DNA from: an uncultured Enterobacteriaceae bacterium
Lineage (GTDB): Bacteria > Myxococcota_A > UBA9042
Reading direction: 5' to 3'
Length of the DNA stretch: 64,000 nucleotides
Assembly (NCBI GenBank): GCA_964560875.1
Contig: CAZLMW010000005.1
Span: forward strand, 3,882-67,881
A program made the translations under genes and the position numbers. Positions 9,522 to 61,947 of this stretch are shown piece by piece. Under the pieces are notes generated by a model. The model was not told where the DNA came from. It saw only the letters and a program-made list of their open reading frames with translations, and searched no databases. The first letter of the stretch is position 1. Each line of letters starts with the position of its first letter.

Positions 9522-11699
9522 ATGAACCAGACACGCACACGGCTGCCCGTGATGGCGATTGGAGTCGCCGTGTTGACCGCGTCGATGTTCGCAGCAAACG
9601 CCTTCGCGGCACCGACCACCATCGCGATCGAGGGCGTCATGAGCGCGACCGGAGGCGGCGCGGCTCCCGATGGCTCGTACGTCATGTATTTCCGCCTCTA
9701 CGACGGCAAAGACGCCAAGAAAGCGGCCTGGCAAGAGGGCCCGGTCGCGCTCGTCATCAAGGGCGGCCGATTTGGTCACGCGCTCGGGACGACCAAGGCT
9801 ATCTCCGCCACAGCGCTGGCCGCGCTCGCCAAGCCGTGGCTCGGGATCTCCATCAACCAGGAGCCCGAGATGAAGCGGGTTCCGGTCCACGCCGTGCCAT
9901 ACGCCCGCGTCGCTGCCCGCGCCGGCGCGCTCGATTGCAAGGACTGTGTAGGAGCCAAGCACATCGCCGCCGGCTCGGTCGGTCCGTCCGACGTCGGGTT
10001 CGCCTACGCCGCCGCCGCCGATGGCATCAAGGGCGGCCCGGCCAAGTCTGCCAAGACGCTCGCGTGCACCGGCTGCGTGACCAACAAGCACCTGAAGTTC
10101 ACGGGCGACCTCAACCTCGGCAAATACGGGCTCAAGGCCGGCAAGGTCACCGCGACGTCGGTCGTGGCCAGCACCATCACGGCGGGCAAATACGTTGGCG
10201 ATGGCTCGGCGCTCACCGGCATCCAGATCCCCAGCGGTAAGTGCCCGGCCGGCAAAGTCGTCAGCGGAATCGACGCCACCGGCAAGCTCATCTGCGCCAT
10301 CGCGATGGACCCCAAGGCGCTGCCCGCCGACGGCCTCGACGAGATCAGCAACGGCCTGCTGCACAACCAGTTCGTCGACGAAGCCAAGAGCAAGGCGCCG
10401 GTCAAGATCCCCGACAACAACCCGACCGGTATCTCCAACACCATTGTCTTCCCCGACGTTGGCATCGCGCAGAAGCTTTGGGTCACCGCCAACATCACCA
10501 ACAGCAACATCGCGCAGGTCGAGGTGTCGCTGAAGGCCCCCAACGGCGCGAGCTACCTGTTGTGGAAGAAGGGCACCGGCAACAAGGGCGGCAAGATCGC
10601 GACATCCTGGCCGACGCCAACCAAGACGGTGAGCGGCAACCTCGCCGCGTGGCACGGCAAAAACCCCAAGGGCAAATGGACGCTGACCGTGAAGGACTCG
10701 GGCTTTCTCAACAACCAAACCGACGGGGCCATCAACAGCTGGTCGGTCAAGATCCAGACGCTGAGCAGCAAGAAAGTCGCCGCGTCCGGCCTGCTGCAAG
10801 CCAACGGGGGACTTCAGCTGCTGCGCACCGACAAGCCTCCGCGCGCATGTGACCAGTCTGCGTTCGGCCTGATGTACGCCAGCCCCAAGAACAACGCGAT
10901 CATGATCTGCAACGGCAAGGAGTGGTTCCCGCTGCTGATGGCCGCGTACGGCACGCAGAACAGCCCGGCCGCCAGCTGCAAGGACCTGCTGACCAAGGCG
11001 CCGTTGACCAAATCGGGCGTGTACTGGCTCGATACCGATGGCCTGGGCGGCGAAGTGCCGTGGCAGACCTGGTGCGACATGGATAACGACGGCGGCGGCT
11101 GGACCCTGGCCATCAAGGGGACGCTCAAGGGCAGCTATAACGGCAGCAAAAACCAGCAGCTCAGCGCGTCCAAGGGCTTCATGTACGCGTTCAACCGGGT
11201 CAAGTTCCGAGACGTCCTCGTCAAGCCCGGCAACTACCAGACCAGCCCGCATTGGGTGACCTTTCACAAGGTTGGGGACAGCACCAGCACGCTGGACACG
11301 CGCATCCAAAAGGGCACCCCCGGCAAGAGCTACAGCGTCGACTACAACGTCAGCGCACCGTACAAGCGGACCAACGCCAGCAAGAGCCTCGCGAGCGTGC
11401 CCGAAATGCAGGCCCTGTCGCTGCGGATGAGCCAAACGTCCGGGCCCAACGACGCAATGTTCTTCGTCGTCACCCGCACCTCGCGCGGCTCGTGCAACAG
11501 CTACAACCCGACCGGCACCTACCGCTACGTCACCGGCAGCGGCAAGTGCATCGGCGTCCAGCTCGGTTTCCGGTCCGGCAACTACACGTGGAGCAGCTGG
11601 AAGACCCGCACCGACTGGTCGACCGGCTGCGGCGTGGCCGGCTACTGGAACGGCTCGGAGACCAATTGCACGTCCTCGGGCGCGGTTTTCGTCCGCTGA
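9522..11699 (+). CDS. Secreted protein with a proprotein-convertase P-domain and a C-terminal fibrinogen-related domain (FReD)
   Basis: Signal peptide (AFAAP). P-domain-like GKWTLTVKDSGFLNNQTDGAINSWSVKIQTL. FReD core SCKDLLTKAPLTKSGVYWLDTDG...WQTWCDMDNDGGGWTLAIKG. Paralog of 59560-61947. Confidence 0.7.
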   Translation: MNQTRTRLPVMAIGVAVLTASMFAANAFAAPTTIAIEGVMSATGGGAAPDGSYVMYFRLYDGKDAKKAAWQEGPVALVIKGGRFGHALGTTKAISATALAALAKPWLGISINQEPEMKRVPVHAVPYARVAARAGALDCKDCVGAKHIAAGSVGPSDVGFAYAAAADGIKGGPAKSAKTLACTGCVTNKHLKFTGDLNLGKYGLKAGKVTATSVVASTITAGKYVGDGSALTGIQIPSGKCPAGKVVSGIDATGKLICAIAMDPKALPADGLDEISNGLLHNQFVDEAKSKAPVKIPDNNPTGISNTIVFPDVGIAQKLWVTANITNSNIAQVEVSLKAPNGASYLLWKKGTGNKGGKIATSWPTPTKTVSGNLAAWHGKNPKGKWTLTVKDSGFLNNQTDGAINSWSVKIQTLSSKKVAASGLLQANGGLQLLRTDKPPRACDQSAFGLMYASPKNNAIMICNGKEWFPLLMAAYGTQNSPAASCKDLLTKAPLTKSGVYWLDTDGLGGEVPWQTWCDMDNDGGGWTLAIKGTLKGSYNGSKNQQLSASKGFMYAFNRVKFRDVLVKPGNYQTSPHWVTFHKVGDSTSTLDTRIQKGTPGKSYSVDYNVSAPYKRTNASKSLASVPEMQALSLRMSQTSGPNDAMFFVVTRTSRGSCNSYNPTGTYRYVTGSGKCIGVQLGFRSGNYTWSSWKTRTDWSTGCGVAGYWNGSETNCTSSGAVFVR

Positions 11700-11726
11700 G
11701 CCGTCGAGCTCAAAATCGGGATCAGG

Positions 11727-11858
11727 CGGTAGGACTGGTTCTACGGGCCGATCTCGCCTCGAAGCTGTTAATACCAAGCCCCCCTGCCAAAACCGCTCCA
11801 GCGGCTTCTACGTGGCTTAGAGAGGCATATGGCTCCAAAAAACGCCCCCGCGGACGGT
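11727..11858 (+). repeat. About 130-nt structured intergenic repeat element, copy 1
   Basis: About 85% identical to the reverse complement of 36912-37052. Contains hairpin-forming TCTACGGG arms and a GGCATATGGC box. Confidence 0.6.
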
Positions 11859-12001
11859 GTGCGGAGGCGAATTCGGCCGGCTAGCCCCGGCTAGCCCGAG
11901 CGATGCGTGCGCTGAGGCCGTGACCGCGAAACAGTCGTCCTGGAGCCTACCTACGCGCTACAATGACGGTCATGGTCATACCTGCTGCTGGCTCGCCCCG
12001 G

Positions 12002-13555
12002 ATGGTTACCGGGAGTTGTGCACGCGTATGCGCGACGATTGTCTTCGTCGTTGCCGGCCTTGGCTCGTGCGGGCAGCGCGCTGAAGACACCAATGGCCTG
12101 GCCAGCGGAGACTTGGACGCGACCGACGGCAACACGGCGGTCCAGCCCACGGATTCGTTCGACGCCGACGTCGCAAACGGCGGCGGTTCAGTCGACGTTG
12201 GCGCGAAGGCGTGCGTCGAGCTTCATCCCAAAGGGACCGTGCCGTTCGTCGCGAAGATCAACACGACGCAGAAACGGACGTTCGAGCTAAGCAACTGCGG
12301 CGATCTCGCCGTCGACATCACGCGAATCCGATGGGATCCGCAGCTTCCACAGCCGCTCTCGTTCACCCTCGAGCTCTCTGGCTTGAAGGCGACCTGGCCC
12401 TCGATCGACGAAACCGACGGACCGACCCTCACCAAACCGGCGACCCTTTTGCCCGGCGCCAAGGTGTCGTTCGCGGTCGTCTACAAGCCGACGCAGGTCG
12501 CCCCGACCTACCCCGATGGCAAACCGATCCCCGAAGAAGCGCACGTCATTGTCCGCCACGCCGCATCCGCCCAGCCTCTGCGACTGCACCTCACCGGCCA
12601 AGGCGTCAAACACGTTTGCCCGGTCGCGTTTGCGCAGGCCAAAGAGGGCACGGCCGTCATCCCCAACACCATGCTTCACCTCAAGGGCAGCGCGTCGTAC
12701 GCCGCCATCGGGTCGCTGAAGAAGTGGAGCTGGACGGTCAAGCAGCCGAGCGGATCCAACCAGGTGTTCGTGCCCGGCCCGAGCTTCCCCGACCCGACGT
12801 TCACCACCAACGCCGCGGGCGATTACGAATTCTGCCTCGAGGTGTTCGACGATGAAGGCCGCAAGAGCTGCCATCCGTCGTGCGTCACCGTGTCCGTGGT
12901 TGTGGAGGCCAGCATCCACGTGGAGCTGCTGTGGAAGACGCCCGCCGACCCCGACGAAACGGATACGGGACCGGCCGCCGGGGCCAACATGGACCTGCAC
13001 TTCGCCCATCCCAAGGCGTACGGTCCCGACCGCGATTGTGACAACGTCCCCGATCCGTGGTTCTCCGTGCCGTTCGACGTCTTCTGGTTCAATCCGAAGC
13101 CAAAATGGCACGCCAATCCCAAGGCGCCTACTGCGGCGTGGCTGGATGTCGACGACACCGACGGAGCAGGTCCTGAGAACATCGTGCTCGACGACCCGCA
13201 AGGCCAGGTCAGCAAACCGATGGCCTACGATATTGGTGTGCACTATCGCAACGACCATGGCTTCCAGACGTCCTACGCGACCGTCAACGTCTACATCCTG
13301 GGCGTGCTCGCGCTGCAAATCAGCAAGGTCAAGATGAATGTGCTGGATATGTGGCATGTCGGCCGGATCAACTGGCCCAACACCATGGCGCAAGGCGTGC
13401 TCGATCCCTTTCACATCTGCTACCAGTCGGGCGACCCGTGCAAGGGCGGCAAGAAGTGGCGGCTCAAGGGCGACTACTGCATCGCCCGGTGCTACCTGCC
13501 CAAGGCTTTCGCGAAGTACGCGTCGACGCTCGGCTGGGGCAGCTGCAAGAAATGA
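12002..13555 (+). CDS. Hypothetical lipoprotein with a PKD-like domain
   Basis: Lipobox AGLGSCG (ATG at 12002; an upstream in-frame ATG at 11963 is possible). PKD-like segment WSWTVKQPSGSNQVFVPGPSFPDPTFTTNAAGDYEFCLEVFDDEG. The stop overlaps the next start. Confidence 0.6.
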   Translation: MVTGSCARVCATIVFVVAGLGSCGQRAEDTNGLASGDLDATDGNTAVQPTDSFDADVANGGGSVDVGAKACVELHPKGTVPFVAKINTTQKRTFELSNCGDLAVDITRIRWDPQLPQPLSFTLELSGLKATWPSIDETDGPTLTKPATLLPGAKVSFAVVYKPTQVAPTYPDGKPIPEEAHVIVRHAASAQPLRLHLTGQGVKHVCPVAFAQAKEGTAVIPNTMLHLKGSASYAAIGSLKKWSWTVKQPSGSNQVFVPGPSFPDPTFTTNAAGDYEFCLEVFDDEGRKSCHPSCVTVSVVVEASIHVELLWKTPADPDETDTGPAAGANMDLHFAHPKAYGPDRDCDNVPDPWFSVPFDVFWFNPKPKWHANPKAPTAAWLDVDDTDGAGPENIVLDDPQGQVSKPMAYDIGVHYRNDHGFQTSYATVNVYILGVLALQISKVKMNVLDMWHVGRINWPNTMAQGVLDPFHICYQSGDPCKGGKKWRLKGDYCIARCYLPKAFAKYASTLGWGSCKK

Positions 13556-36161: not shown

Positions 36162-36686
36162 TCATATGCCGCCCGGCCGCGGCCATTTCAGCCAGAGTTC
36201 GATGATGGGATGCGGTGCAGCGTTGCCTGGTGAGGGCCCGAATCCGACGCCGGCAAATGCGGTCCGCTTGACCTTCTTGCCGCCGAGCATCATCGCGACG
36301 CGAGCGTCTCCGTACACCTTGACGAGCAGAGGTCCTCCGCCGTCGTCGGATTGCAGCAAGAACGGCATGAACCCGGCGGCGGGTATCGCAACCTTGTCGG
36401 CGTGTCGGTCGGCCAGCAGGTAGAGGCGGTCCCGTTTTTCGTCGACGTGGATGTACAAGCTGCCCCACGGTTCATCCGACGGTTGCGCCTGCCATTCGAC
36501 ACACTCGGTGACCGTGCCGAGGCCGGTGAAGGCGCCGTCGATGGTCAGCGGAATCGGGCATTGAATTGTCTCGTCATCGCCGGGCGCGGCGACACGACCG
36601 CATCCAGCCGCCACCATGAGCACGAGCGACAGGCCAACGCGCAACAAGTGAGCGAGGCGTCGGTCGGCGATCGGCAGCGGCAACAT
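36162..36686 (-). CDS. Hypothetical lipoprotein
   Basis: Signal peptide LSLVLMVAAGCG. 175 aa, immediately upstream of the IPT gene. Confidence 0.55.
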   Translation of the reverse strand: MLPLPIADRRLAHLLRVGLSLVLMVAAGCGRVAAPGDDETIQCPIPLTIDGAFTGLGTVTECVEWQAQPSDEPWGSLYIHVDEKRDRLYLLADRHADKVAIPAAGFMPFLLQSDDGGGPLLVKVYGDARVAMMLGGKKVKRTAFAGVGFGPSPGNAAPHPIIELWLKWPRPGGI

Positions 36687-36911
36687 CGTCGCAGTGTACC
36701 CCACAATCACCGGCTGCCCGGCACGGTCAATGCGCGCCGGACCGGCATCTGGTTGCGGGTTGTGGTGCCGTCGTTGCGCTGTTCAGCGGACGGGGGCCTC
36801 TTTGGCCCGGAAGACGCCAGGCAAACCTGTGTCCCGTCAACTGGTCAGCGATTTCGGACTTGGGTTCACGCTACCGCAAGCCGTTGCACAGCCGACCGTG
36901 CCAAAACCGTG

Positions 36912-37052
36912 CACCCGGACCGTCCGCGGGGGCATTTTTCAAGGCCATATGCCCCTGCGTGGCTCGTAGAGGCCACTGGAGCGGTTTTGATAGGGGGGTG
37001 CGGCATCAATACCTTCGAGCGGCGATCGGCCCGTAGAGACGGTTCTACGGGC
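36912..37052 (-). repeat. About 130-nt structured intergenic repeat element, copy 2 (inverted relative to copy 1)
   Basis: The reverse complement aligns to 11727-11858 at roughly 85% identity. Contains the CCCGTAGA-GACGGT-TCTACGGG hairpin. Confidence 0.6.
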
Positions 37053-37175
37053 AAACGGCCAACCGTCGCGCCTCGGCGACTTCTCGCTCTGGGAGCTCCT
37101 GCGCCGGGCGCGGCGACGCGACCGCATCCAGCCGCCACCATTGCTTCGGCGGCGGTTTTTCGAGACGTTGGTGCC

Positions 37176-37769
37176 GTGGACGCCGAGCGACTCTACGTGC
37201 AGCCCGATGTGTACGGGCATGCCTACGACCTCTTCCTGCATCCGCTCGACGGTGGGCAAGCGGCGTTGGCGGCGATCCTCGGCGCGCTGGGGACCCATCC
37301 GGCGTTTGGCGACTGGTACGTCGGCTCCGACCACGGCTGGCGGCTGACCACACCCAAGCTCGCAGTCGAAGCCGAGGTGCTCCAGCTGGTCGCGGCATCC
37401 AAGACCATCGGATCGGTGGCGAACCTCGGCGGCAACCGACGCCTGGCTTTCTTCGCCATCGTCTTCTTGCAGCCGCCGGTGTCGATCAACCTGTGGACGA
37501 AGATGTCCGAGGTGGTGGGCGCCTTTGGTTTGCGCGACGACGACGACGACGACGACGCTCCGACGACACCATGGCGCCGCGTGATGGACAGCTTCTACCG
37601 CGACCTCGCCGAGCGTGCGCACGCCGCCTCGCCGCTGCACGGCGCGTTGATCGGGCCCGAGGTCGAAAACGAGCTGGATTGGACGGCGCCGCTGCCCGAA
37701 GACCGCTGGGAAGGCACGCTCATCGCCATGGCCGATGGGTTGCACTGGCATCCCGCGACGCGCTGGTAG
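37176..37769 (+). CDS. Hypothetical protein with a poly-Asp tract (GTG start inferred)
   Basis: Protein-like C-terminal 200 aa of a long ORF. (GAC)7 gives DDDDDDD. No ATG, so GTG at 37176 is chosen. Confidence 0.35.
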   Translation: MDAERLYVQPDVYGHAYDLFLHPLDGGQAALAAILGALGTHPAFGDWYVGSDHGWRLTTPKLAVEAEVLQLVAASKTIGSVANLGGNRRLAFFAIVFLQPPVSINLWTKMSEVVGAFGLRDDDDDDDAPTTPWRRVMDSFYRDLAERAHAASPLHGALIGPEVENELDWTAPLPEDRWEGTLIAMADGLHWHPATRW

Positions 37770-49281: not shown

Positions 49282-52200
49282 ATGACCGCTCGTTTCACGC
49301 CCGCGGCCGCGCGCCGTTACCCCATCGCGTGCCTTTGCATCGCTTCCCTCGCGCTGACCGCCTGCGGCAGCGATGAACCGGTCGACGGCCCCCTGGCTTC
49401 GACAAACGTCGACTCGGGCCCGGCCGATACCGGACAGACCGACACCGGCGTCCAGGACTCGGGGACCACCGACACCGGGGTCAACGACACCACGCCCACG
49501 GACACGGGGACCACCGACACCGGGGTCAAGGACACCAACCCGAACGTCGACGTCCAGCCGGTGGACACCAAGCCGCCGGTCGACGCCAAGCCCGACACCA
49601 AGCCGCCGACCGACGCCGCGCCCGAGTGCACCAACGCCACCGACTGCGTCCCGTCCACCGATCCGTGCAAGGTCGCCGCGTGCACGTCCGGCCAGTGCGT
49701 GCTCGCCGATGGGCCCGACGGCAAGGAATGCACCGACGACGACGCCTGCACCGGCCCGGACCTGTGCAAGACCGGCGTGTGTCTGCCCGGCAAAGCGACC
49801 CAGTGCGACGACGCGAACGCTTGCACGCTCGACAACTGCGACAAGAACAAGGGCTGCAGCCACACCAACGTCTCGCTGCCCTGCGATGACGGCAGCAAGT
49901 GCACTTTGGCCGACCAGTGCAAGGACGGCGCGTGTCTCGCCGGGGCCACGGCCGAATGCGACGACGCAAACCCATGCACCGACAACACCTGCGAGCCCGC
50001 GATCGGCTGCGTGACGACCGCTACCACCAAGCCATGCGACGACGCAAACGCGTGCACGCTCGGCGACAAGTGCAGCGCGAAGGTCTGCCTGCCCGGCACG
50101 GTCACCAACTGCAACGACGACAACCCATGCACGACGGACGCGTGCGACAGCAAGACCGGCTGCACCCAGGCGTTCAACAAGGTGCCTTGCTCGGACAACG
50201 ACGCCTGCACCATCAAGGACGCCTGCAAGGACGGCAGCTGCAAGCCGGGCACCAAGCTCGACTGCGACGACTCCAACCCCTGCACCGCGGACGCCTGCGA
50301 CGCGCAATCGGGCTGCACGACCAAACCGAACACCGCGACCTGCGATGACAACAACCTGTGCACCGAAGACGACAGCTGCAAAGGCGGAAAATGCCTGCCC
50401 GGCAAGTCCAAGTCGTGCAGCGACGGCAACCCGTGCACCACCGATAGCTGCGACCCGGCGACCGGCTGCGCATTCAAGCTCAACAGCGGGCAGTGCGACG
50501 ACGGCAACGCGTGCACCGACTTCGACATCTGCAAGAGCGGCAAGTGCCGCGGCGTCGCCAAGGACACCAAGACCGACTGCAACGACGCCAACCCATGCAC
50601 GACCGACGCGTGCGATCCCGGCTCGGCCCAGGTGAAGGGCAAGGGCTGCGTACACACCAACAACACCGCCAAGTGCGACGATGGCAACGCCTGCAGCGCC
50701 GGAGACGCCTGCAAAGACGGCAAGTGCGCGGCCGGCAAAAACGTCTGCGCCTGCACCGAAGACAAGCACTGCGCCCCGTCCAACCCCAAGAACCCGTGCC
50801 TCGGCACGCTGTTCTGCGACAAGTCCGCGGCGCCGTTCAAGTGCAAGCTCAACCCGGCTTCAGTGGTCAAGTGCAGCGGCGCCGGTGACACGTTGTGCGC
50901 CAAGAACCAGTGCGATCCCAAGGACCTCAAGTGCAAGGTGACGCCGATCGCCGAGGGCCAGTCCTGCAACGCCGACAACTCGGTCTGCACCGTTGGCGAC
51001 GCCTGCAAGAACGGCAAATGCGCGCCCGGCAAAGCGCTCGCCTGCAACGACGCCAACCCGTGCACCAACGACGCCTGCGACCCCAAAGCCGGCTGCGTGA
51101 ACACCGCGAATTCGGCGCCCTGCAACGCGGACGGCAACCCCTGCACCGTCGGCGATGTGTGCGTGGCCAAGGCGTGCACGGCGGGCAAGAAGAAGGACTG
51201 CGACGACGGCGACAAGTGCAGCGACGACTCCTGCGACAAGAAGTCCGGCAAGTGCGTCAACGACAAGATCGCCGGCTGCGGCGGTCACTGCCAGGAAGAC
51301 AAGCACTGCGACGACGGCACGACCTGCACGACCGAGTCCTGCGCCAAGGCCAAGGGGGCCGCGTGGGGCAAGTGCGCGTACAAGAACCAGCCCGGCAAGT
51401 GCACCGACTTCAACGCCTGCACCGCGGCCGACCACTGCGTCGCGGGCAAATGCGTCGGCACGGCCAAGTCCTGCAGCGACGGCAACCCCTGCACCAACGA
51501 CGGCTGCGACCCGACCAGCGGCTGCACGTTCCCGCACAACACCGCGCCTTGCGACGACTTCGACAAGTGCACCCAGGGCGACCAGTGCAAGGCAGGCAAG
51601 TGCGCGGCAGGCACCCCCAAGAAGTGCGACGACGCCGACAAATGCACCAAGAACGCCTGCAACCCTGCGGACGGGGCCTGCAGCTTCAAGGGCATCGCGG
51701 GCTGCGGCGGCTACTGCGATACCGCGGCGGACTGCGACGACAAGAACCCGTGCACGACCGCGCAATGCAACAAGGGCAAATGCGTCTCATCGGTCAAGGC
51801 GGGCGGCTGCGAGGACGGCAACAAGTGCACGCTGAGCGACAAGTGTTCGGCCGGCAAGTGTGTCTCGGGCAGCAAGAAGAGCTGCGATGACAAGAACGCG
51901 TGCACCACCGATTCGTGCGACACCAAGACCGGTCAGTGCGCCAACAAGCCGCTCAAGGCCGGCGACAGCTGCAACGACAACAACAAGTGCAGCACCAAGG
52001 ACGTGTGCAAGCTCGTCAGCGGCAAGCTGCAGTGCGGGGGTACGACCAAGAACTGCGACGACGGCAACAAGTGCACCGACGACGCGTGCGACGCGAAAAC
52101 CGGCAACTGCCAGCCCAAGGTCAACACCCTGCCGTGCGAAGACGGCAACAAGTGCACCGCGGGCGACCGCTGCAAGGACGGCAAGTGCGTCACCGGCGCC

Positions 52201-55200
52201 AAGGTCTACGTCGACACGTTCGCGGGTTCGGGGCCCATCCATGGCAACAAGGGCGGATTCGTCGACGGGCCTGGCAACAAGGCCAAGTTCAGCTACCCGC
52301 TTGGCGTCGCAGTCAACAGCAAGGGCGTCGTCTACGTCGCCGACGCGTCCAACCACCGGATTCGCCGCATCGCCGCCGACGGCACCGTGAGCACCGCGGC
52401 TGGTTCGGGTAAAGCTGGCCTGCTCGACGCGAAGGGCACCGCCGCCTGGTTCAACGCGCCTTATGGCGTCGCTATCGGGCCGGGCGATGAGGTGTTCGTC
52501 GCCGACCAGGCCAACTACAGCATCCGCAAGATCGCGACCGACGGCACCGTTTCAACCGTCGCGGGATCGGGCCAGGGGGGGCACGTCAACGGCGACGCGG
52601 CCAAGGCGCGGTTCAACCGACCGTTCGGCGTGGCGGTCAGCAAGGCCGGCACCATCTTCGTCGCGGACACCTACAACCACCGCATTCGTCGCATCGCTTT
52701 CGGGCAGGTAACGACACTCGCGGGCAGCGGCGGGGCAGGGTTCACCAACGGCACGCCGACCAAGGCGCGCTTCTACTACCCGATCGGGGTCGCTATCGAC
52801 GCTGGTGGCAACGTGCTCGTCGCCGACCAGAGCAACCATCGCATCCGCCGCGTCGACGCCAAGGGCAACGTCACCACGTTCGCCGGCACGGGCGGCTACG
52901 GCTCGCTCAACGGCAGCGCGACCAAGGCCACGTTCCGCAACCCGTGGGGCATCGCGGTCGACAACGCGGGCGTGGTTTGGATCGGCGATCGCTACAGCCA
53001 TCGCATCCGGCGCATCGCGGGCGGTGTGGTCACCACTTTTGCTGCCAGCGGCGCCGCGGGCTTCGTCGATGGGGCCGCGAACACCGCGCGCCTGTACTAC
53101 CCGTCCGGGGTTGCCGTCGACGCCGGCGGAACCCTCTACATCGCCGACCAATACACCCACCGTGTGCGACGTGTGCGCGATTCGACCGCGCCATGCCTCA
53201 TCGGCGGCAGCTGCTACGCCAACGGCGCGGCGAACCCGGCCAACGGCTGCGAACGCTGCGTCGCCAAGACGTCATCGACCAAGTGGACGGCGGGCGGCGA
53301 CGGCAACGCGTGCTCGGACGGCGATGTCTGCACCGCGGCCGACAAGTGCAGCGGCGGCTCCTGCAAGGGCAGCGCCAAGGTCTGCAACGACAGCGACAAG
53401 TGCACCCTCGACAGCTGCGACAAGAGCACCGGTCAGTGCGTGTTCGCGCCGATTAACAAGTGCGGCGGCAACTGCAAGGGCGCCAGCGACTGTGCCGACA
53501 ACAACCCGTGCACCATCGACAAGTGCACCAACGGCAAGTGCGCGAACAGCAACGCGGACGGACTTGTCTGCAACGACGGCAACAGCTGCACCCTCGGCGA
53601 CGCCTGCAAGGGCGGCAAGTGCCAGCCCGGCGCGTCCAACAGCGTCTCGACCCATGCCGGCAGCGGCGTCGCGGCGTTGACCGACGGCAAGGGCATAAAA
53701 GCCAGCTTCAACTACCCGCGCGGCGTCGATGTTGGCGTGAAGGGCGAGCTGTGGGTCGCTGAAGGCCACTCCCACCGCATCCGCAAGGTCGCTGCGGACG
53801 GCACGGTCACGACGGTGGCCGGGTCCGGTGTCGCTGGATTCGCGGACGGCAAGCTCGCCGGCGCGATGTTCCAGTGGCCGCACGACGTCTCGTTCGCCAA
53901 GGCCGGCGTGATCCACGTCGCCGACGGTAGCAATCACCGCATTCGCACGGTCGACACGGCCAAGGGCGTGGTGACGACACTGGCCGGAATTGGCGCCGGT
54001 TTCACGGATGGTCCGGCCGCCAAGGCGCGGTTCAACAACCCGTACAGCCTCGCGACCGCACCCAACGGCACGGTTTTCGTCGCGGACTACAGCAACCACC
54101 GCATCCGCGCGATCTCGCCAGCCGGGGGTGTCAGCACGCTTGCCGGCGGCGCCAAGGGCTTCGTCAACGGCACCGGCAGCAAAGCGCGCTTCAACGGCCC
54201 GATCGGCATCGCGCTCGACCAGCAGGGGCGCGTCGTCGTGTCCGATTACAGCAACCACTCGATCCGCCGCGTCACCATGCAAGGCGTCGTGACCACGATC
54301 GGCGGCACTGGGGTCGCCGGGTATCGCGACGGTTCGGCCGGTGTCTCGCGCTTCCGCTACCCCTGGGGCATCACCACGGATTCAGCCGGGCGCGTTTTCG
54401 TGGCCGACCGACACAACCATCGCATTCGGGCGATCCATCCCAACGGCACGGTGACCCGCATCGCTGGCACAACCGCCGGGTTCCTCGATGGCGACGGCCT
54501 GACCAAGGCGCGACTGCACTACCCGATGGGGCTCGCCGCGGACGCCAACGGCACGCTGTGGGTGGGCGACTACAGCACGCGCAGGATCCGCAAGGTCGTG
54601 CCCTCGGCGAACGCCTGCTCGATCGGTGGCGCCTGCTACGCAAACGGCATTGGTTCCCCGACCAACGGCTGCCAGGCATGCGCCGGACAAACCAACAGCA
54701 AGGCGTGGACCGCGCGGGCCGACGGCGCCGTTTGCTCCGATGGTGACGTGTGCAGCGGCAAGGACGCCTGCGCCAGCGGCAAGTGCGCGAGCAAGAAGAC
54801 CAACTGCGACGACGGCAACAAGTGCACCAAGGACTTCTGCGACCACCTCGGCGTGTGCCGCAACGAGCCGATCGTCGGCTGCGACGGCTTCTGCTACCAG
54901 CACGCGGATTGCGACGACAAGAACGTGTGTACCGACGACGTCTGCAACGCCAACAAGTGCGCCAACCCGACCAACGTCAAACCGTGCGAGGACGGGGTCT
55001 CCTGCACGCTCGGCGACACGTGCAGCGGCGGTAAGTGCAAGCCAGGAACCGCCGTCTGGACGTCGACCATCGCGGGCAATGGAAAGGCCGGCTTCAAGGA
55101 CGGGAAGGTGACCGACGCGCAGTTCTACTATCCGCTCGGGATCGCGGTCGACAGCGGCAAGGGCCATGTCTACGTCGCCGACAACAGCAACCACCGCCTG

Positions 55201-57639
55201 CGTCGCATCGCGGCCGACGGCACCGCGACAACCATCGCCGGTAGCGGCAAGGCGGGCTTTGGGGACGGCGCGGCAGCCATCGCTCAGCTGCGCAACCCAT
55301 CGGATGTCGAGATCGGCCCCGGTGGCGGGCTCTACTTCGCTGACCGCGGCAACCACCGCATCCGTGTCCTCGCGGCCGGCAAGGTCACCACGGTCGCGGG
55401 TTCAACGGCCGGATACGCCAACGGCAAGGCCGCCGCGGCGCGCTTCAACAACCCGTATGGCATCGCGGTGAGCAGCGGTGGCGTCGTCTACGTGGCCGAC
55501 TACAGCAACCACCGCGTGCGCCGCATCCTGCCCGACGGTTCTGTCAGCCTCGTGGCCGGTTCAGGCGCCGGTTACGTCAACGGCAAGGGCGCTGCCGCCC
55601 GATTGCACGGGCCGATCGATGTCGCGCTCGACCGCGCCGGCAACCTCTTCGTCGTGGAGCACACGGGACATCGCGTGCGGCGGATCACGCCCGATGGTGT
55701 CACCTCGCTCGTCGCAGGCTCCGTCAGCAACCAGGCCGGGTATGTGCACGGCAAGGGCGCAACTGCGCGTTTCCGCTACCCGTGGGGCATCGCCGTGGCA
55801 CCCAACGGTCGCATCTATGTCGCCGACGGACATAACCACCGCATTCGCGAGATCGTCGGTGACGTCGCCGGGCATTTCGCGGGCAGCGGCACGGCCGGGT
55901 TCGCCAACGGAACCGCCGGCAAAGCCGCGTTCTACTACCCGCGTGGAATCGGCGTCGGCGCCGACGGCGCGGTCTACATCGGGGACCAATACAACCACCG
56001 CATCCGCAAGATCGTGGATGCGCGGGCACCTTGCGCGATCGGGTCGGCCTGCTACGCGGCTGGTACGCCAGCGACCGGCAAACCATGCTCGGTTTGCGAC
56101 GCGGCGAAGAACGCCAAGGCTTGGACCACATTGGCCAACAGCGCGCCCTGCGAGGACGGCAACTACTGCACCGAAAAGGACGCGTGTGCATCCGGCTCCT
56201 GCGCCGGTAGCAAGGTGTCCTGTGACGACTCCGACAAGTGCACCACCGACTCGTGCAACGCCAAGTCCGGCGCCTGCGTGCACACCAAGATCGTGGGCTG
56301 CAACGGTTTCTGCACCGAGGACAAGCACTGCGACGACGGCAACCCGTGCACGCAGGGCGACCTCTGCATCAACAACACCTGCGGCAAGGGCACGCGGACG
56401 GTCTCCTCGACGTTGGCCGGCACCACGATCGGCTTCCAAGACGGCGACGCGAAGACGTCCAAGCTCAACAGGCCCTACGACGTCGCGGTCGACAGCAAGG
56501 GCGCGCTCTATGTCGCGGACTACAACAACAACCGCATCCGCAAGGTTGCCGGCGGCAAGGTGAGCACGCTCGCGGGCAGCGGCCAGGCCGGGCTCAAGAG
56601 CGGCAAGGGCACCGCTGCATGGTTCAACCGACCATCCGGTGTCACGACCGACGCAGCAGGCAACGTCTACGTCGCCGATCGCTACAGCTACACGATCCGC
56701 AAGGTCACCGCGGACGGCACCGTCTCGACCCTCGCTGGCAACGGTGCGGCCGGGGCGTCGAACGGCAAGGGCTCAGCAGCGCGCTTCAACCAGCCGATCG
56801 GCATCGCATCGACCGCTGGTGGCGTCCTGTATGTGGCCGACTACAACAACCAGCGCATCCGCCGAGTCACCGCCGATGGCACTGTGTCCACGCTCGCCGG
56901 TAGCTCGTACGGGTACGCCGACGGCAAGGGTTCGGCCGCCAAGTTCCGCTACCCGATCGGCATCGCCGTCGACCGGGCCGGCAACGCATTCGTCACCGAC
57001 TTCAACAACCACCGCATCCGCAAGGTCACCGCGGACGGAGTCGTCACCACAGTCGCGGGCTCGGGCAGCGCGGGCTTGCTCAACGGCGACGCCAAGACGG
57101 CCAAGTTCTACAACCCCTGGGGTATCGCCGTGGACGGCGCCGGTCGCGTCTACATCGGCTCGTACCGGTACCATCGCTTGCGCGTGCTCGACGCGGGCAC
57201 TGTCTACCAGGTCACCGGTTCATCGGCGGGCTACGTCGACGGCGCAGCGGGCCGCTTCTACCACCCGCTCGGTATCACGACCGACGTCTACGGCAACATC
57301 TTCGTCGCCGACTACTGGAACAACCGTATTCGCCAGGTGAGCCGCACGGCCAACGCTTGCTCCATCTCCGGAGCGTGCTGGACCGACGGCGTGCACAACC
57401 CGGGTTCAGCGTGCCAGGCCTGCGCCGGGAGCAAGAGCGCGAAAGGTTGGTCCGCCATCGCCGACGGGCAGTGGTGCGAAGACGGTGCAATGTGCACGGT
57501 CGGCGACGTCTGCAAGAGCGGCAAGTGCACCGGCGGCGCGAAGGACTGCGACGACAAGAACAAGTGCACGACCGACAGCTGCGACGCCACGACCGGAGCC
57601 TGCACGTACAAAGTCCCCGACCCGAAGTGCAAACCGTAG
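49282..57639 (+). CDS. Giant (2785 aa) lipoprotein: Thr/Asp-rich linker, about 24 alternating 25-aa cysteine-rich repeats, and four NHL-repeat beta-propellers separated by Cys-repeat spacers
   Basis: Lipobox LALTACG. Repeats CDDANPCTxDxCDxxxGC alternating with CxDxxxCTxxDxCKDGxCxPG. NHL blades YPLGVAVNSKGVVYVADASNHRIRRIAADGTVST... Confidence 0.85.
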   Translation: MTARFTPAAARRYPIACLCIASLALTACGSDEPVDGPLASTNVDSGPADTGQTDTGVQDSGTTDTGVNDTTPTDTGTTDTGVKDTNPNVDVQPVDTKPPVDAKPDTKPPTDAAPECTNATDCVPSTDPCKVAACTSGQCVLADGPDGKECTDDDACTGPDLCKTGVCLPGKATQCDDANACTLDNCDKNKGCSHTNVSLPCDDGSKCTLADQCKDGACLAGATAECDDANPCTDNTCEPAIGCVTTATTKPCDDANACTLGDKCSAKVCLPGTVTNCNDDNPCTTDACDSKTGCTQAFNKVPCSDNDACTIKDACKDGSCKPGTKLDCDDSNPCTADACDAQSGCTTKPNTATCDDNNLCTEDDSCKGGKCLPGKSKSCSDGNPCTTDSCDPATGCAFKLNSGQCDDGNACTDFDICKSGKCRGVAKDTKTDCNDANPCTTDACDPGSAQVKGKGCVHTNNTAKCDDGNACSAGDACKDGKCAAGKNVCACTEDKHCAPSNPKNPCLGTLFCDKSAAPFKCKLNPASVVKCSGAGDTLCAKNQCDPKDLKCKVTPIAEGQSCNADNSVCTVGDACKNGKCAPGKALACNDANPCTNDACDPKAGCVNTANSAPCNADGNPCTVGDVCVAKACTAGKKKDCDDGDKCSDDSCDKKSGKCVNDKIAGCGGHCQEDKHCDDGTTCTTESCAKAKGAAWGKCAYKNQPGKCTDFNACTAADHCVAGKCVGTAKSCSDGNPCTNDGCDPTSGCTFPHNTAPCDDFDKCTQGDQCKAGKCAAGTPKKCDDADKCTKNACNPADGACSFKGIAGCGGYCDTAADCDDKNPCTTAQCNKGKCVSSVKAGGCEDGNKCTLSDKCSAGKCVSGSKKSCDDKNACTTDSCDTKTGQCANKPLKAGDSCNDNNKCSTKDVCKLVSGKLQCGGTTKNCDDGNKCTDDACDAKTGNCQPKVNTLPCEDGNKCTAGDRCKDGKCVTGAKVYVDTFAGSGPIHGNKGGFVDGPGNKAKFSYPLGVAVNSKGVVYVADASNHRIRRIAADGTVSTAAGSGKAGLLDAKGTAAWFNAPYGVAIGPGDEVFVADQANYSIRKIATDGTVSTVAGSGQGGHVNGDAAKARFNRPFGVAVSKAGTIFVADTYNHRIRRIAFGQVTTLAGSGGAGFTNGTPTKARFYYPIGVAIDAGGNVLVADQSNHRIRRVDAKGNVTTFAGTGGYGSLNGSATKATFRNPWGIAVDNAGVVWIGDRYSHRIRRIAGGVVTTFAASGAAGFVDGAANTARLYYPSGVAVDAGGTLYIADQYTHRVRRVRDSTAPCLIGGSCYANGAANPANGCERCVAKTSSTKWTAGGDGNACSDGDVCTAADKCSGGSCKGSAKVCNDSDKCTLDSCDKSTGQCVFAPINKCGGNCKGASDCADNNPCTIDKCTNGKCANSNADGLVCNDGNSCTLGDACKGGKCQPGASNSVSTHAGSGVAALTDGKGIKASFNYPRGVDVGVKGELWVAEGHSHRIRKVAADGTVTTVAGSGVAGFADGKLAGAMFQWPHDVSFAKAGVIHVADGSNHRIRTVDTAKGVVTTLAGIGAGFTDGPAAKARFNNPYSLATAPNGTVFVADYSNHRIRAISPAGGVSTLAGGAKGFVNGTGSKARFNGPIGIALDQQGRVVVSDYSNHSIRRVTMQGVVTTIGGTGVAGYRDGSAGVSRFRYPWGITTDSAGRVFVADRHNHRIRAIHPNGTVTRIAGTTAGFLDGDGLTKARLHYPMGLAADANGTLWVGDYSTRRIRKVVPSANACSIGGACYANGIGSPTNGCQACAGQTNSKAWTARADGAVCSDGDVCSGKDACASGKCASKKTNCDDGNKCTKDFCDHLGVCRNEPIVGCDGFCYQHADCDDKNVCTDDVCNANKCANPTNVKPCEDGVSCTLGDTCSGGKCKPGTAVWTSTIAGNGKAGFKDGKVTDAQFYYPLGIAVDSGKGHVYVADNSNHRLRRIAADGTATTIAGSGKAGFGDGAAAIAQLRNPSDVEIGPGGGLYFADRGNHRIRVLAAGKVTTVAGSTAGYANGKAAAARFNNPYGIAVSSGGVVYVADYSNHRVRRILPDGSVSLVAGSGAGYVNGKGAAARLHGPIDVALDRAGNLFVVEHTGHRVRRITPDGVTSLVAGSVSNQAGYVHGKGATARFRYPWGIAVAPNGRIYVADGHNHRIREIVGDVAGHFAGSGTAGFANGTAGKAAFYYPRGIGVGADGAVYIGDQYNHRIRKIVDARAPCAIGSACYAAGTPATGKPCSVCDAAKNAKAWTTLANSAPCEDGNYCTEKDACASGSCAGSKVSCDDSDKCTTDSCNAKSGACVHTKIVGCNGFCTEDKHCDDGNPCTQGDLCINNTCGKGTRTVSSTLAGTTIGFQDGDAKTSKLNRPYDVAVDSKGALYVADYNNNRIRKVAGGKVSTLAGSGQAGLKSGKGTAAWFNRPSGVTTDAAGNVYVADRYSYTIRKVTADGTVSTLAGNGAAGASNGKGSAARFNQPIGIASTAGGVLYVADYNNQRIRRVTADGTVSTLAGSSYGYADGKGSAAKFRYPIGIAVDRAGNAFVTDFNNHRIRKVTADGVVTTVAGSGSAGLLNGDAKTAKFYNPWGIAVDGAGRVYIGSYRYHRLRVLDAGTVYQVTGSSAGYVDGAAGRFYHPLGITTDVYGNIFVADYWNNRIRQVSRTANACSISGACWTDGVHNPGSACQACAGSKSAKGWSAIADGQWCEDGAMCTVGDVCKSGKCTGGAKDCDDKNKCTTDSCDATTGACTYKVPDPKCKP

Positions 57640-59281: not shown

Positions 59282-59559
59282 GTTGGAACATGTGGCCAAC
59301 CACAATGGCGGCCCCAGAGCCGCCGCTGTTCCCACGGCCCGGCACAATGGTCCGCGACGCTTTGTCGAAGTGAAAGGTCCCGGCGACCAGCTACAGCCCA
59401 ATCAGAAGCGCTGGCTGCAGGCGCTCGAGGAGGTTGGCGTTGACGCGAGCGTAGTCGATGTCCGGTGGGCGGCCGGCAGCCCATGAGCCGCGAAGAGAGC
59501 CAAGCCTCGTTCACCCCTCGATATTCGGCCTGCTGGACCGAATGTGGCAAGCTGCCGCC

Positions 59560-61947
59560 ATGAAGAACCGCACCATTGTTGGCCTTGCCGCCGCCGCACT
59601 TTCTCTCACCCTCGCCGCACCCGCCGCGGCCGCTGTTCCAGCCACGGTCGCCATGCACGGAACGCTGCATTCGGCCGGTGGTGGACCGGTCGCCGACGGC
59701 ATCTACGGCGTCACCATCGCGCTCTATGCCGGCGAAAACGATAAGGTGGCGGCGTGGAGCAACCTCGTGCTGGTCAAGGTCACTCACGGCCACTTCGCGC
59801 ACCCGCTGGGCAGCAAGAAGGCGCTCGATGCCAAGCTGCTCGGGACGTTCGGTTGGCTCGGCGTGACCGTCGGCCAGGACCCGGAGTTGCCGCGTGTTCG
59901 CCTTCACAGCGCGCTCTTCGCCCGCCACGCCGCGGTCGCCAACGCCGTCGCATGTTCGGGCTGCATCACCGCCACGCACCTCGCCAAGGGCCTGTTGAGC
60001 ACCGGAGTCCCCGACGGGTCGATCACCGCCAAGAAGGTCACGTTCGCCTGGGCCGCCGCAGACAAGGCCGGTGGCAAGGCCCTCGCAGCCAAGATCGCCG
60101 ACAGTGCCAAGAACGCCGACAGTGCCAAGAACGCCGACAATGCCAAGAACGCCGACAATGCCAAGAACGCCGACAATGCCAAGAACGCCGACAGTGCCAA
60201 GAACGCGGCGTCTGCCCTCGTTGCGACCACCGCCAAGCTCGCCAGCGACCTCAAGTGCACCGGCTGTGTCGGCGTGTCTGAGCTCGCCTTCGATGGCGAC
60301 ATCGATCTCGGCAAGAACCGGCTCAAAGCGGCCAAAGTGAGCGCGACCGAGGTCGTCGGAAGCACCGTAACGGCGGGCTCTTTTGTAGGCGACGGCTCCA
60401 AGCTGACCGGAATCGCGCTGCCCAAGGGGTCATGCGCCGCTGGCGAGGCGGTTGTCGGGGTCAGCACGAACGGCAAGCTGCTTTGCAAGAAGGTCGCCTC
60501 TGCCACGCCCGGCGGCTCGCTCGAGAAGGTCAGCGGCGGTCTGCTCACGACAGGGTTTTCGCAGGTTGTCGCCAACAACAAGGCGATCCCGATCCCGGAC
60601 AACAACCCCGGCGGCGCCTACAGCGATGTCGTCGTGCCGGACCTCGGCATCGTCAAGAACCTGACCGTCGCCATCGACGTGACCAACTCGGCGTTTTCGG
60701 GGCTCACCGTGACCCTGATCGCCCCCGACAAGAGCAAGTACGTGCTGTTCTCCAAGAACGGCGCGGTCATCACCAACCTCAAGGCGACCTATCCCGCGCC
60801 GAACAAGCCGGTCAGCGGCGACCTCAACGCGTGGATCGGCAAGAACGCCAAGGGCACATGGCGGCTGCACGTCGTCGATATGTCGTTCAAGGACAACGGC
60901 AAGGACGGCAACATCGTCTCGTTTTCGATGCACATCGCGTTCCAGGCAACCGGCAAGGTCGGCACCACCGGCGTCTTCATGCTGCACAAGTCCGCGACCC
61001 CACCAGCGGCCTGCTCGCTCGCGTCCGAGGGCGGCATCTACTACGACCCCAAGCTCAAGCGCCTGCGCTTCTGTGACGGCAACGCGTGGCAATCGGTCGC
61101 GGGGAGCTGCGGCAACGGCACCAAGGAGCCGGGCGAGATGTGCGACGACGGCAACAACACCAACGGCGACGGATGCACGTCTGTCTGCACGACGATCTGC
61201 GGCGACGGCAAAGTCGGCGGGGCCGAACAATGCGACGACGGCAACAAGGTCGACAACGACGGCTGCAGCAACACCTGCAAGGGCGCACTCGGCCAATCGC
61301 AGAGCTCGGCCGCGAAGAGCTGCAAATACATCAAGCAGCTATCGCCCAACGTCAAGAGCGGCCTGTTCTGGCTCAAGGTCTCGGGCCTCGGCACGTTCCA
61401 GGCCTACTGCGATATGTCGACGGCCGGCGGTGGCTGGGTCCTGACGCACGTCGTCCGCACCTACAGCAGCAACGTCTCGTGGTGGTTCACGCGCACCGGT
61501 GACGGCACAGGTGGCGTGACGAACCTGCCCAAAGCGGTCAAGCAACCGAGCAGCTACCACACCGGTCCGACCCTGAAGACGCGCGCCAGCCTGTGGACTG
61601 GCCTCGGCGGTACGGAGTATCGGGGCACGCGCTACAGCACCGGCGGGTCCCTGCTGATGGACGTGACCAAGAACGACATCAAGTCCTGCCAGGTCGGCCT
61701 GTTCTGCTACGCGGCAGGATGCGGCGGCAGCCCGTGCTTCAGTCAGAAGCGGTCGGGCAGCGTGACCGTGATCGGGGGAACGCTGTACGGCAAGGGCACG
61801 CAGCCCTACTACGACGTCGGCAGCTACAAGTGCAATTGCTCCGAGGCGCTGCAGGTCGGCGGGTCGGGCGCCGGACAGAGCAACGGACACGGCCTCGCAG
61901 GCGACTGGGACACCGGCAACGGCTACACGGCCTTCTGGGTCCGCTAG
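59560..61947 (+). CDS. Secreted protein with a P-domain, Myxococcus cysteine-rich repeats and a C-terminal fibrinogen-related domain (paralog of 9522-11699)
   Basis: Signal peptide. (AKNAD)x7 repeat. P-domain GTWRLHVVDMSFKDNGKDGNIVSFSMHI. CGNGTKEPGEMCDDGNNTNGDGC, CGDGKVGGAEQCDDGNKVDNDGC. FReD SGLFWLKV..YCDMSTAGGGWVL. Confidence 0.75.
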   Translation: MKNRTIVGLAAAALSLTLAAPAAAAVPATVAMHGTLHSAGGGPVADGIYGVTIALYAGENDKVAAWSNLVLVKVTHGHFAHPLGSKKALDAKLLGTFGWLGVTVGQDPELPRVRLHSALFARHAAVANAVACSGCITATHLAKGLLSTGVPDGSITAKKVTFAWAAADKAGGKALAAKIADSAKNADSAKNADNAKNADNAKNADNAKNADSAKNAASALVATTAKLASDLKCTGCVGVSELAFDGDIDLGKNRLKAAKVSATEVVGSTVTAGSFVGDGSKLTGIALPKGSCAAGEAVVGVSTNGKLLCKKVASATPGGSLEKVSGGLLTTGFSQVVANNKAIPIPDNNPGGAYSDVVVPDLGIVKNLTVAIDVTNSAFSGLTVTLIAPDKSKYVLFSKNGAVITNLKATYPAPNKPVSGDLNAWIGKNAKGTWRLHVVDMSFKDNGKDGNIVSFSMHIAFQATGKVGTTGVFMLHKSATPPAACSLASEGGIYYDPKLKRLRFCDGNAWQSVAGSCGNGTKEPGEMCDDGNNTNGDGCTSVCTTICGDGKVGGAEQCDDGNKVDNDGCSNTCKGALGQSQSSAAKSCKYIKQLSPNVKSGLFWLKVSGLGTFQAYCDMSTAGGGWVLTHVVRTYSSNVSWWFTRTGDGTGGVTNLPKAVKQPSSYHTGPTLKTRASLWTGLGGTEYRGTRYSTGGSLLMDVTKNDIKSCQVGLFCYAAGCGGSPCFSQKRSGSVTVIGGTLYGKGTQPYYDVGSYKCNCSEALQVGGSGAGQSNGHGLAGDWDTGNGYTAFWVR

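Follow-up and report, generated by a model that had tools for sequence, protein, structure and literature searches.

A non-coding sequence of about 130 nt recurs in at least four copies on three contigs, which most likely belong to one genome. We favour, with some reserve, the reading that these copies are an old, non-autonomous, REP/MITE-like dispersed repeat family of one uncultured marine Myxococcota population. Two copies, named c1 and c2, lie in inverted orientation inside the window (the whole 64-kb stretch of DNA that was analysed), and two more, c3 and c4, are carried by other contigs of the same organism. Each copy retains three parts: a hairpin at its left end, a unique core of ~75 nt, and an invariant run of five A followed by a G+C-rich hairpin. 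Throughout, the element strand is the one on which the sequence-only reading had placed the element, and the opposite strand is its complement.

The homology of the two copies in the window is well defined. A repeat search of the window returned inverted arms at 11729-11858 and 36919-37048 that are 130 nt long, ungapped and 77% complementary, whereas no such pair is expected by chance. In a MAFFT alignment, c1 and c2 share 82% column identity over ~200 nt and 76% over the 133-nt core. Two conserved blocks, CAAAACCGCTCCAGNGGCNTCTACG and AAAAANGCCCCCGCGGACGGT, with 23 and 20 specified bases, respectively, each occur exactly twice in the window at up to 3 mismatches, against 0.00 matches expected for either in 100 shuffles. 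The sequence-only reading had aligned 11727-11858 with the reverse complement of 36912-37052 at roughly 85%; the homology stands, but that figure is slightly too high, the identity being 76-82%. The similarity ends abruptly at ...GCGGACGGT, leaving the downstream genes outside the homologous region, and on the opposite side it fades ~15 nt beyond the GTAG...CTAC hairpin. The copies and their left-end hairpins are as follows.

11729-11858, plus strand: core of c1, common to the other copies, with 76-77% identity to c2, c3 and c4 over 133 nt.
36907-37078, minus strand: full extent of c2 (172 nt), 85% identical to c3; the 130-nt core held in common with c1 is 36919-37048.
11717-11756, plus strand: left-end hairpin of c1, GGGATC..GGC.GTAGGA-loop-TTCTAC..GCC GATCTC; fold of -19.5 kcal/mol, 12 of 13 consensus pairs.
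37022-37061, minus strand: left-end hairpin of c2, GGC.GTT.GCCCGTAGA-ACCGTC-TCTACGGGC.GAT.GCC; 13 of 13 consensus pairs.

Two further copies place the pair in a family, in keeping with the small dispersed repeat that the sequence-only reading had listed among its possibilities. Copy c3 (positions 1761-1932 of contig L025) matches c2 at 85% identity across 172 nt and c1 at 79% across 119 nt; c4 lies at about 10345-10495 of L063, a section of a 42-kb contig that derives from the same samples. Within the family, any two copies are 76-86% identical in the core. Copy c2 is nearest to both c3 (86%) and c4 (84%), and c1 is the most divergent. The contigs that carry the copies were recovered in the same four to five assemblies, and their tetranucleotide composition correlates with that of the window, closely for L063 (r = 0.989) and less closely for L025 (r = 0.929); the four copies therefore most likely reside in one genome. 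Exact-protein look-ups located the window on a metagenomic contig of ~103 kb (ENA ERZ27251152, k141_591830), and its DNA is also present in several JGI and Logan assemblies; the source sediments are those of JGI 3300009703, 3300009481 and 3300024344.

The two additional copies came from different searches. A scan of metagenome contigs with AAAAANGCCCCCGCGGACGG returned 19 loci, of which L025 alone was a true copy, whereas c4 was reached by aligning one open frame, built from c2 and c1, against 1.84 billion protein representatives; the match was a spurious 199-aa open reading frame on L063 (P0130, E = 3e-10) that contains ...LSLRADLGSKVLIPHPPPKTAPGASASHVGAYGLEK... The exact-pattern scan of the metagenome collection is unfit for estimating copy number because it did not return a JGI contig known to carry c1, and the count of four is a lower bound. 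Among 185,579 species-representative genomes, two probes picked up no true copy: AAAACCGCTCCAGNGGCNTCTAC had 0 matches, and the 4 matches to AAAANGCCCCCGCGGACGGT were all chance terminator-like or coding sequences. Scans of viral contigs gave 0, 0 and 20 matches, all 20 spurious; a BLAST search of plasmids in distant mode gave none; and a chimeric six-frame 'protein' of three copies, run against a set of 5.8 billion proteins, found no relative among the 8000 candidates listed.

All four copies are intergenic, and among them every class of gene orientation occurs. Copy c1 lies tail-to-head, between gene 9522-11699 on the plus strand (P_proprotein/COLFI/fibrinogen-like) and a PKD-domain lipoprotein gene at 12002-13555, also on the plus strand. 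Homologs of the latter bear the annotation of Myxococcales or Deltaproteobacteria MAG proteins, from which the host is inferred to be an uncultured myxococcotan. Copy c2 lies head-to-head, in a divergent spacer of 489 nt between a 197-aa gene (37176-37769, plus strand) and a 174-aa lipoprotein gene (36686-36162, minus strand) for which no homologs beyond itself were found. Copy c3 lies, on the element strand, tail-to-tail with a convergent toxin-antitoxin pair, brnT-brnA (BrnT_toxin, E = 8e-28), and faces its 3' end; the brnA stop codon is 20-30 nt from the element. Copy c4 lies between two genes of the opposite strand and faces, on the element strand, a convergent Cys-rich coding remnant, which reads into the element, and then a 165-aa gene. 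An orientation upstream of a co-oriented gene is found in two of four copies on either strand, in c1 and c2 on the element strand and in c2 and c4 on the opposite one. The flanking genes are unrelated. Because the two lipoprotein genes are not paralogs, duplication of a gene does not account for the repeat.

Other repeats adjoin two of the copies, local rearrangements that give an indirect hint of mobility. Three tandem units of 165-186 nt abut c3, and c2 is bracketed by a pair of 40-nt direct repeats (family D1) that are 98% identical and 524 nt apart. They lie 54 nt and ~300 nt from the ends of c2 and have no counterpart at c1 or c4.

36578-36617, no strand assigned: downstream member of the 40-nt direct repeat, within the signal-peptide/lipobox coding part of gene 36686-36162.
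37102-37141, no strand assigned: upstream member, located in the spacer between the genes, 54 nt beyond the left end of the c2 core.

The A5 run at the right-hand end is the same in all four copies, in a genome of 66% G+C, and a G+C stem adjoins it. Of the two halves of this stem, the inner one, GCCCCCGC, is kept in c1, c2 and c3 and has diverged to GGCTCTGC in c4; the outer one varies between copies yet keeps some pairing. On the opposite strand, the combination of a G+C stem and a U run has the form of a Rho-independent terminator in c1 and c3, and weakly so in c2 and c4.

11835-11870, minus strand: terminator-like hairpin of c1, CGCCTCCGC-loop-GCGGGGGCG TTTTTT; 9 bp, -22.2 kcal/mol, z = -3.5.
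36900-36944, plus strand: weak G+C hairpin of c2 with T5, the homolog of the terminator-like end in c1 and c3; its -12.2 kcal/mol does not improve on shuffled sequences.

In c1, the conserved core takes in the T run and the 3' half of the stem but not the rest of the hairpin. The hairpin of c3 is moderate, with a stem of ~9 bp that includes five G-C pairs and one bulge, followed by T6, and it stands 20-30 nt past the brnA stop codon.

This end of the element is the basis for the first of four rival explanations, according to which the copies are a domesticated terminator or insulator module of the opposite strand, made of the G+C stem with U5-6 and then the second hairpin, and are kept by selection instead of selfish spread. 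The canonical geometry in c1 and c3, the T run invariant in four of four copies, and outer stem halves that differ in sequence and still pair are what such a module would display. It would also be placed to act after a co-oriented unit in c3 (brnA) and c4 (the coding remnant); c1 and c2, however, have no co-oriented upstream gene to terminate, and in c2 and c4 the hairpin is weak and does not exceed shuffled controls. Moreover, conservation continues for ~110 nt past the T run, sequence for which a terminator has no use. We consider this explanation unlikely, and it is still the best placed of the four, followed by a small-RNA family, a leader or upstream-frame element, and the ends of a larger element.

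The left-end hairpin is the other structured part. Imperfect and 13-16 bp long, it centres on GTAG(R)A-loop-TCTAC-GGGCCGATC (in short form, GTAGA...TCTACGGGCCGATC) and forms in all four copies. The sequence-only reading had seen a hairpin-forming segment at the start of both copies in the window, and this observation was confirmed: CCCGTAGA/TCTACGGG is perfect over 9 bp in c2, as an inverted repeat at 37029-37037 and 37044-37052, and degenerate in c1, where it reads GTAGGA/TTCTAC. In the four-copy alignment, 92% of the cells pair, as opposed to 29-50% when the partners are slid. Of the 52 cells, 48 pair on the element strand but only 40 on the opposite one, the difference being due to 8 cells that are G-U. 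Between the two hairpins runs the unique core, CTCGAAGGTATTGATACC..CCCCCC..CAAAACCGCTCCAG.GGC.TCTRCG..AG.GGCATAYGGC. A long-range helix between ACCGCTCC and GGACGGT is also predicted.

The second rival takes these features as those of a multi-copy sRNA gene family on the element strand, with a 5' hairpin, a single-stranded CCCCCC stretch as a possible seed and a 3' G+C hairpin. The strand on which the left hairpin pairs better is the one that this explanation calls for, several substitutions in the predicted helices are wobble-compatible on that strand, and conservation is good in the C6 run as well as in the core. Several results argue against it. First, covariation does not reach significance: with four sequences, two pairs have changed on both sides, 84 of 500 shuffles attain the observed score of the left-end hairpin, and the RNAalifold covariation terms, computed on three or four copies, are unfavourable (+0.24, +1.57 and +0.81). 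Second, the whole element folds no better than shuffled sequences on either strand (z from +0.66 to -1.6). Third, Rfam 15 gave no match at gathering thresholds in the whole window, and around c1, c2 and c4 the matches at E <= 10 were at chance level only (E >= 0.8). Fourth, nothing resembling a sigma-70 site was detected near c1 or c2 in a promoter scan, and the sequence upstream of c1 does not recur at the other copies. Fifth, the 3' hairpin lacks a U tail on the element strand, except in c2, where TTTT follows four nucleotides later, and the right-hand block is badly diverged in c4. The candidate sRNA of the sequence-only reading thus finds no support, the terminator-like feature being confined to the opposite strand, and we regard this explanation as decidedly unlikely.

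Several other classes of signal were considered for the conserved stretches and set aside. An ECF-type or sigma-70 promoter is contradicted by the absence of a conserved -35/-10 arrangement in the copies. Sigma-54 promoters carry GG-N10-GC (TGGCAC-N5-TTGC), whereas TGGC(Y)(Y)..AAAAA(Y)GC in the element gives GG-N11-GC in every copy; the stretch is furthermore damaged in c3, where TGGC is CGGC, and in c4, where the GC is lost (CGGCTC). The best match to an IHF site, TATCAATACCTTC on the opposite strand of c3 and c4, is one base off the consensus WATCAANNNNTTR. Defining features of an integron attC site, a retron msr/msd, or a tRNA or tmRNA fragment were not found.

A related and bolder proposal is that the hairpin-ended element acts as a single-stranded nucleic acid on the element strand. 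As single-stranded DNA, it would be a mobilised repeat of a new class, comparable by analogy to RAYT or IS200/IS605 elements and distinguished by a long unique cargo core; as RNA, it would be a trans-acting, multi-copy sRNA family whose exposed CCCCCC run would pair with Shine-Dalgarno sequences. The strand asymmetry of G-U/G-T pairing in the left hairpin is the sole positive hint for either version, and we give the proposal slim prospects.

The embedded conserved mini-ORF of the sequence-only reading did not survive the comparison of copies.

11829-11894, plus strand: 21-codon reading frame in c1, judged no gene.

The ATG at 11829 does open a frame of 21 codons that ends at 11894, and a purine-rich stretch does precede it. 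This ATG is ACG in c3. The frame has 21 codons in c1, 25 in c2 and 93 in c4 and is missing from c3, with ~10 residues alike, and its third-position G+C in c1 is ~57% by hand count, against 0.79-0.9 in the open reading frames of the window. The short frame is not a gene. Nor is the element a coding remnant: c1, c2 and c3 can be read through without a stop in a further two frames, but their third-position G+C is 51-57% (hand count) compared with the same 0.79-0.9, and the substitutions show no constraint. Between c1 and c2, the open frame is 57% identical as protein, about what is expected from 76-82% DNA identity without constraint. In annotation, neither the 21-codon frame nor the 199-aa P0130 should be called a gene.

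The third rival, also proposed by the sequence-only reading, is a cis-regulatory 5' leader or uORF element that controls the downstream lipoprotein genes. As had been noted, c1 and c2 lie upstream of, and co-oriented with, lipobox-type genes, 143 nt from 12002 on the plus strand and 232 nt from 36686 on the minus strand, and the frame MA(P/L/S)KN(A/G)(P/S)AD is recognisable in c1, c2 and c4. Against this, c3 and c4 face convergent genes, the start codon and frame length vary as described above, the purine-rich stretch ends just 3 nt before the ATG, and the two lipoprotein genes are unrelated. In the nearest ortholog of the c1 operon, on contig L056 of a related species, a lipoprotein gene with 58% amino-acid identity is followed by the same overlapping IgGFc-binding-like gene, and its 126-nt upstream spacer does not contain the element. 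We hold a leader or uORF function to be quite improbable.

The last rival makes c1 and c2 the two inverted ends of a 25-kb mobile unit or genomic island (11729-37048), or else remnants of a segmental duplication. It draws on their inverted placement with the left-hairpin ends outermost, on a PIN-domain toxin gene within the interval and on the 40-nt direct repeat beside c2. It is very hard to credit: no transposase, integrase or recombinase is among the genes called in the interval, no G+C shift marks the boundaries, c3 and c4 each stand alone between unrelated flanking sequences, and c1 and c2 are only 76% identical, less than c2 is to c3 or c4.

A REP/MITE-like repeat, which we favour over these rivals, was compared with the hallmarks of mobile elements. 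By size (130-172 nt, below 300 bp), non-coding nature and number (four copies on three contigs), the element falls in the range of MITEs. Inverted-repeat scans of all four copies detected no terminal inverted repeats common to them; c1 alone has a TIR-like pair, of 15 nt and 87% identity, at 11746-11760 and 11864-11878. The alignments show no short direct repeats beside the homology boundaries that could be target-site duplications. Gene lists around the copies, covering ~110 kb of genome, include no transposase, RAYT or integrase gene, and neither an empty site nor a presence/absence polymorphism turned up, the copies being unchanged in every assembly. With respect to REP sequences, GTAG/CTAC lies inside the stem of the left hairpin, next to the loop, and the 13-16-bp hairpin is joined to a non-palindromic body of 90 nt. 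The element belongs to the general kind of small bacterial intergenic repeats and to no named family; it is placed in the general kind only because shared terminal inverted repeats and target-site duplications were not found and because the REP architecture is absent.

The comparison with named families makes this placement concrete. REP, BIME and REPIN sequences, mobilised by RAYT (TnpA-REP), measure 20-40 nt, have copy numbers in the tens to hundreds, are often arranged as inverted doublets, and carry GTAG at the 5' foot. Our element shares with them a G+C-rich imperfect hairpin with GTAG, G-T/G-U pairs that favour one strand, an intergenic position often past stop codons, and the potential to act as a terminator or mRNA stabiliser; it differs in its long unique core, in the GTAG inside the stem, and in having no RAYT gene in any fetched locus. 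Correia elements (NEMIS/CREE) of Neisseria are ~100-155 nt long and intergenic and supply terminators, promoters and RNA hairpins; they are bounded by 26-bp terminal inverted repeats, duplicate a TA target and contain an IHF site. The likeness here is one of size, intergenic location and the ability to supply hairpins or terminators to neighbours, whereas no terminal inverted repeat or target-site duplication is common to our copies, and the IHF-like match departs from the consensus by one base. BOX elements of Streptococcus pneumoniae (boxA-boxB-boxC) are modular, non-coding and intergenic, are without a transposase, and have a boxA that pairs with boxC. Our element is likewise a small, modular, non-coding, intergenic repeat with distinct end modules, a central module and no transposase, but each of its ends forms a local hairpin of its own, and no variable-number central module was seen.

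The enterobacterial units are a further point of reference. ERIC is one long imperfect palindrome; ERIC and the other RU sequences occur in either orientation, form hairpins in transcripts, and contain chance open frames that can fuse to neighbouring ORFs. In reviews by Delihas, ERIC/IRU (RU-1), RU-2 and RU-3 are described as non-coding units of 100-170 nt in multiple intergenic regions (PMC2759123; see also PMC2229807). The present element agrees with them in size, non-coding nature and intergenic location, and the coding remnant that runs into c4 resembles the frame fusion of RU sequences. In contrast to ERIC, two different hairpins here flank a unique core, and there is no whole-element fold; in contrast to the ERIC/RU group as a whole, there is no sequence similarity, the host is a myxococcotan, and four copies are known. 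Nothing in the element would surprise a specialist, and the one odd feature is that its left hairpin favours one strand in pairing.

The sequence data establish the family itself, where its copies lie, their capacity to form hairpins and the absence of coding constraint; mobility and any terminator or RNA-stabilising activity are inferred. If the family is a REP/MITE-like repeat, its history and present effect may be pictured as follows. The element, with a core of ~130 nt that reaches ~170 nt in the c2/c3 subtype, would have spread in the past by trans-mobilisation or recombination, entering intergenic DNA regardless of gene orientation, and its copies, at a pairwise identity of 76-86%, would now be decaying. 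Any effect today would be incidental and structural, namely the addition of stable hairpins to transcripts wherever copies are transcribed. On the opposite strand, the G+C hairpin with U5-6 could terminate transcription Rho-independently after brnA in c3 and after the Cys-rich remnant in c4. On the element strand, the left hairpin of c1, which starts 18 nt past the stop codon of gene 9522-11699, may be included in the transcript of that gene and might stabilise it.

The significance depends on the reading. A repeat mobilised as single-stranded DNA, or an sRNA family of the kind outlined above, would be new for Myxococcota and would matter more, but the evidence at present points to neither. 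Should the dispersed-repeat reading be correct, it adds one more small intergenic repeat family, in a poorly sampled marine Myxococcota lineage, and little follows from it beyond some practical consequences. Assemblies of the host may break at the copies, as may have happened at c2, where two Logan contigs both stop inside the element with a 28-nt overlap around 36944-36971 (SRR5211068); this may be an assembly-graph branch, as one would expect at a repeat, and is a second indirect hint of mobility. In addition, the genes beside the copies, namely brnTA, gene 9522-11699 and the Cys-rich gene remnant, may gain terminators or 3'-UTR hairpins from them.

Two Logan contigs from run SRR5211068, L006 and L031, both end within copy 2 of the element, where they overlap by 28 nt (window 36944-36971). 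This pattern suggests that the assembly graph branches there, owing either to a further near-identical copy or to a structural variant. The Logan contigs L061 and L062 run through copy 1 unbroken. Copy 2 is also bracketed by a 40-nt direct repeat (window 36578-36617 and 37102-37141), whose two members are 98% identical and lie 524 nt apart. The downstream member (36578-36617) is coding and supplies the lipobox segment, MVAAGCGRVAAPG, to the 174-aa lipoprotein. The upstream member (37102-37141) falls in the intergenic spacer, and the divergent 197-aa gene starts 35 nt from it. Rearrangement, an att-like duplication and gene conversion are all possible origins of this 40-nt repeat.

The PKD-domain lipoprotein encoded downstream of copy 1 (window 12002-13555, 517 aa) has homologs of ~780 aa, one of which carries the name 'choice-of-anchor D' in Myxococcales MAGs. 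The alignment to these homologs spans only 86% of the length of the window protein and leaves its first ~70 residues outside. The protein is a short form lacking the N-terminal domains of the ~780-aa homologs, and a few further short forms exist (proteins P0011, P0060 and P0086). Toxin-antitoxin genes lie near element copies at two places: copy 3 is found 20-30 nt from the end of a BrnT/BrnA pair (L025 1209-1745), and a PIN-domain gene and its partner of 147 aa are located between copies 1 and 2 (window ~32073-32519, + strand).

On the metagenomic contig L025, the 1.2-kb spacer beside copy 3 is crowded with other repeats (L025 1911-2431 and 2549-2700): three tandem units of 165-186 nt adjoin the left end of copy 3, and two 59-nt repeats each carry the palindrome CCGGATCCCG(C/T)TCGGGATCCGG. 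In the window, nearly all direct-repeat families derive from a giant ORF of 2785 aa (49282-57639), whose sequence is made up of tens of Cys-rich (CDDGNxCTxDxC) units and NHL-like repeats 159-162 nt long. Within the ORF at 59458-61947, ~9 tandem units of an 18-nt repeat, GCCAAGAACGCCGACAAT (60070-60231), specify a peptide repeat some six residues in length (AKNADN/AKNADS).

Copies 3 and 4 are flanked by Cys-rich (Dicty_CTDC) genes related to the 2785-aa ORF. Beside copy 4, the minus strand of L063 10495-10745 looks coding, with G or C at almost all third positions by hand count, and encodes a Cys-rich peptide (...CKNDMFTHSGGNYACNGKSTACPDDDKLLAWTSYACKKAAAGVC). This frame, which has neither a start codon nor a signal peptide, runs directly into copy 4; the gene caller instead placed a spurious 199-aa ORF (P0130) on the opposite strand. 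The segment probably represents what is left of a gene, with its 3' end now inside copy 4.
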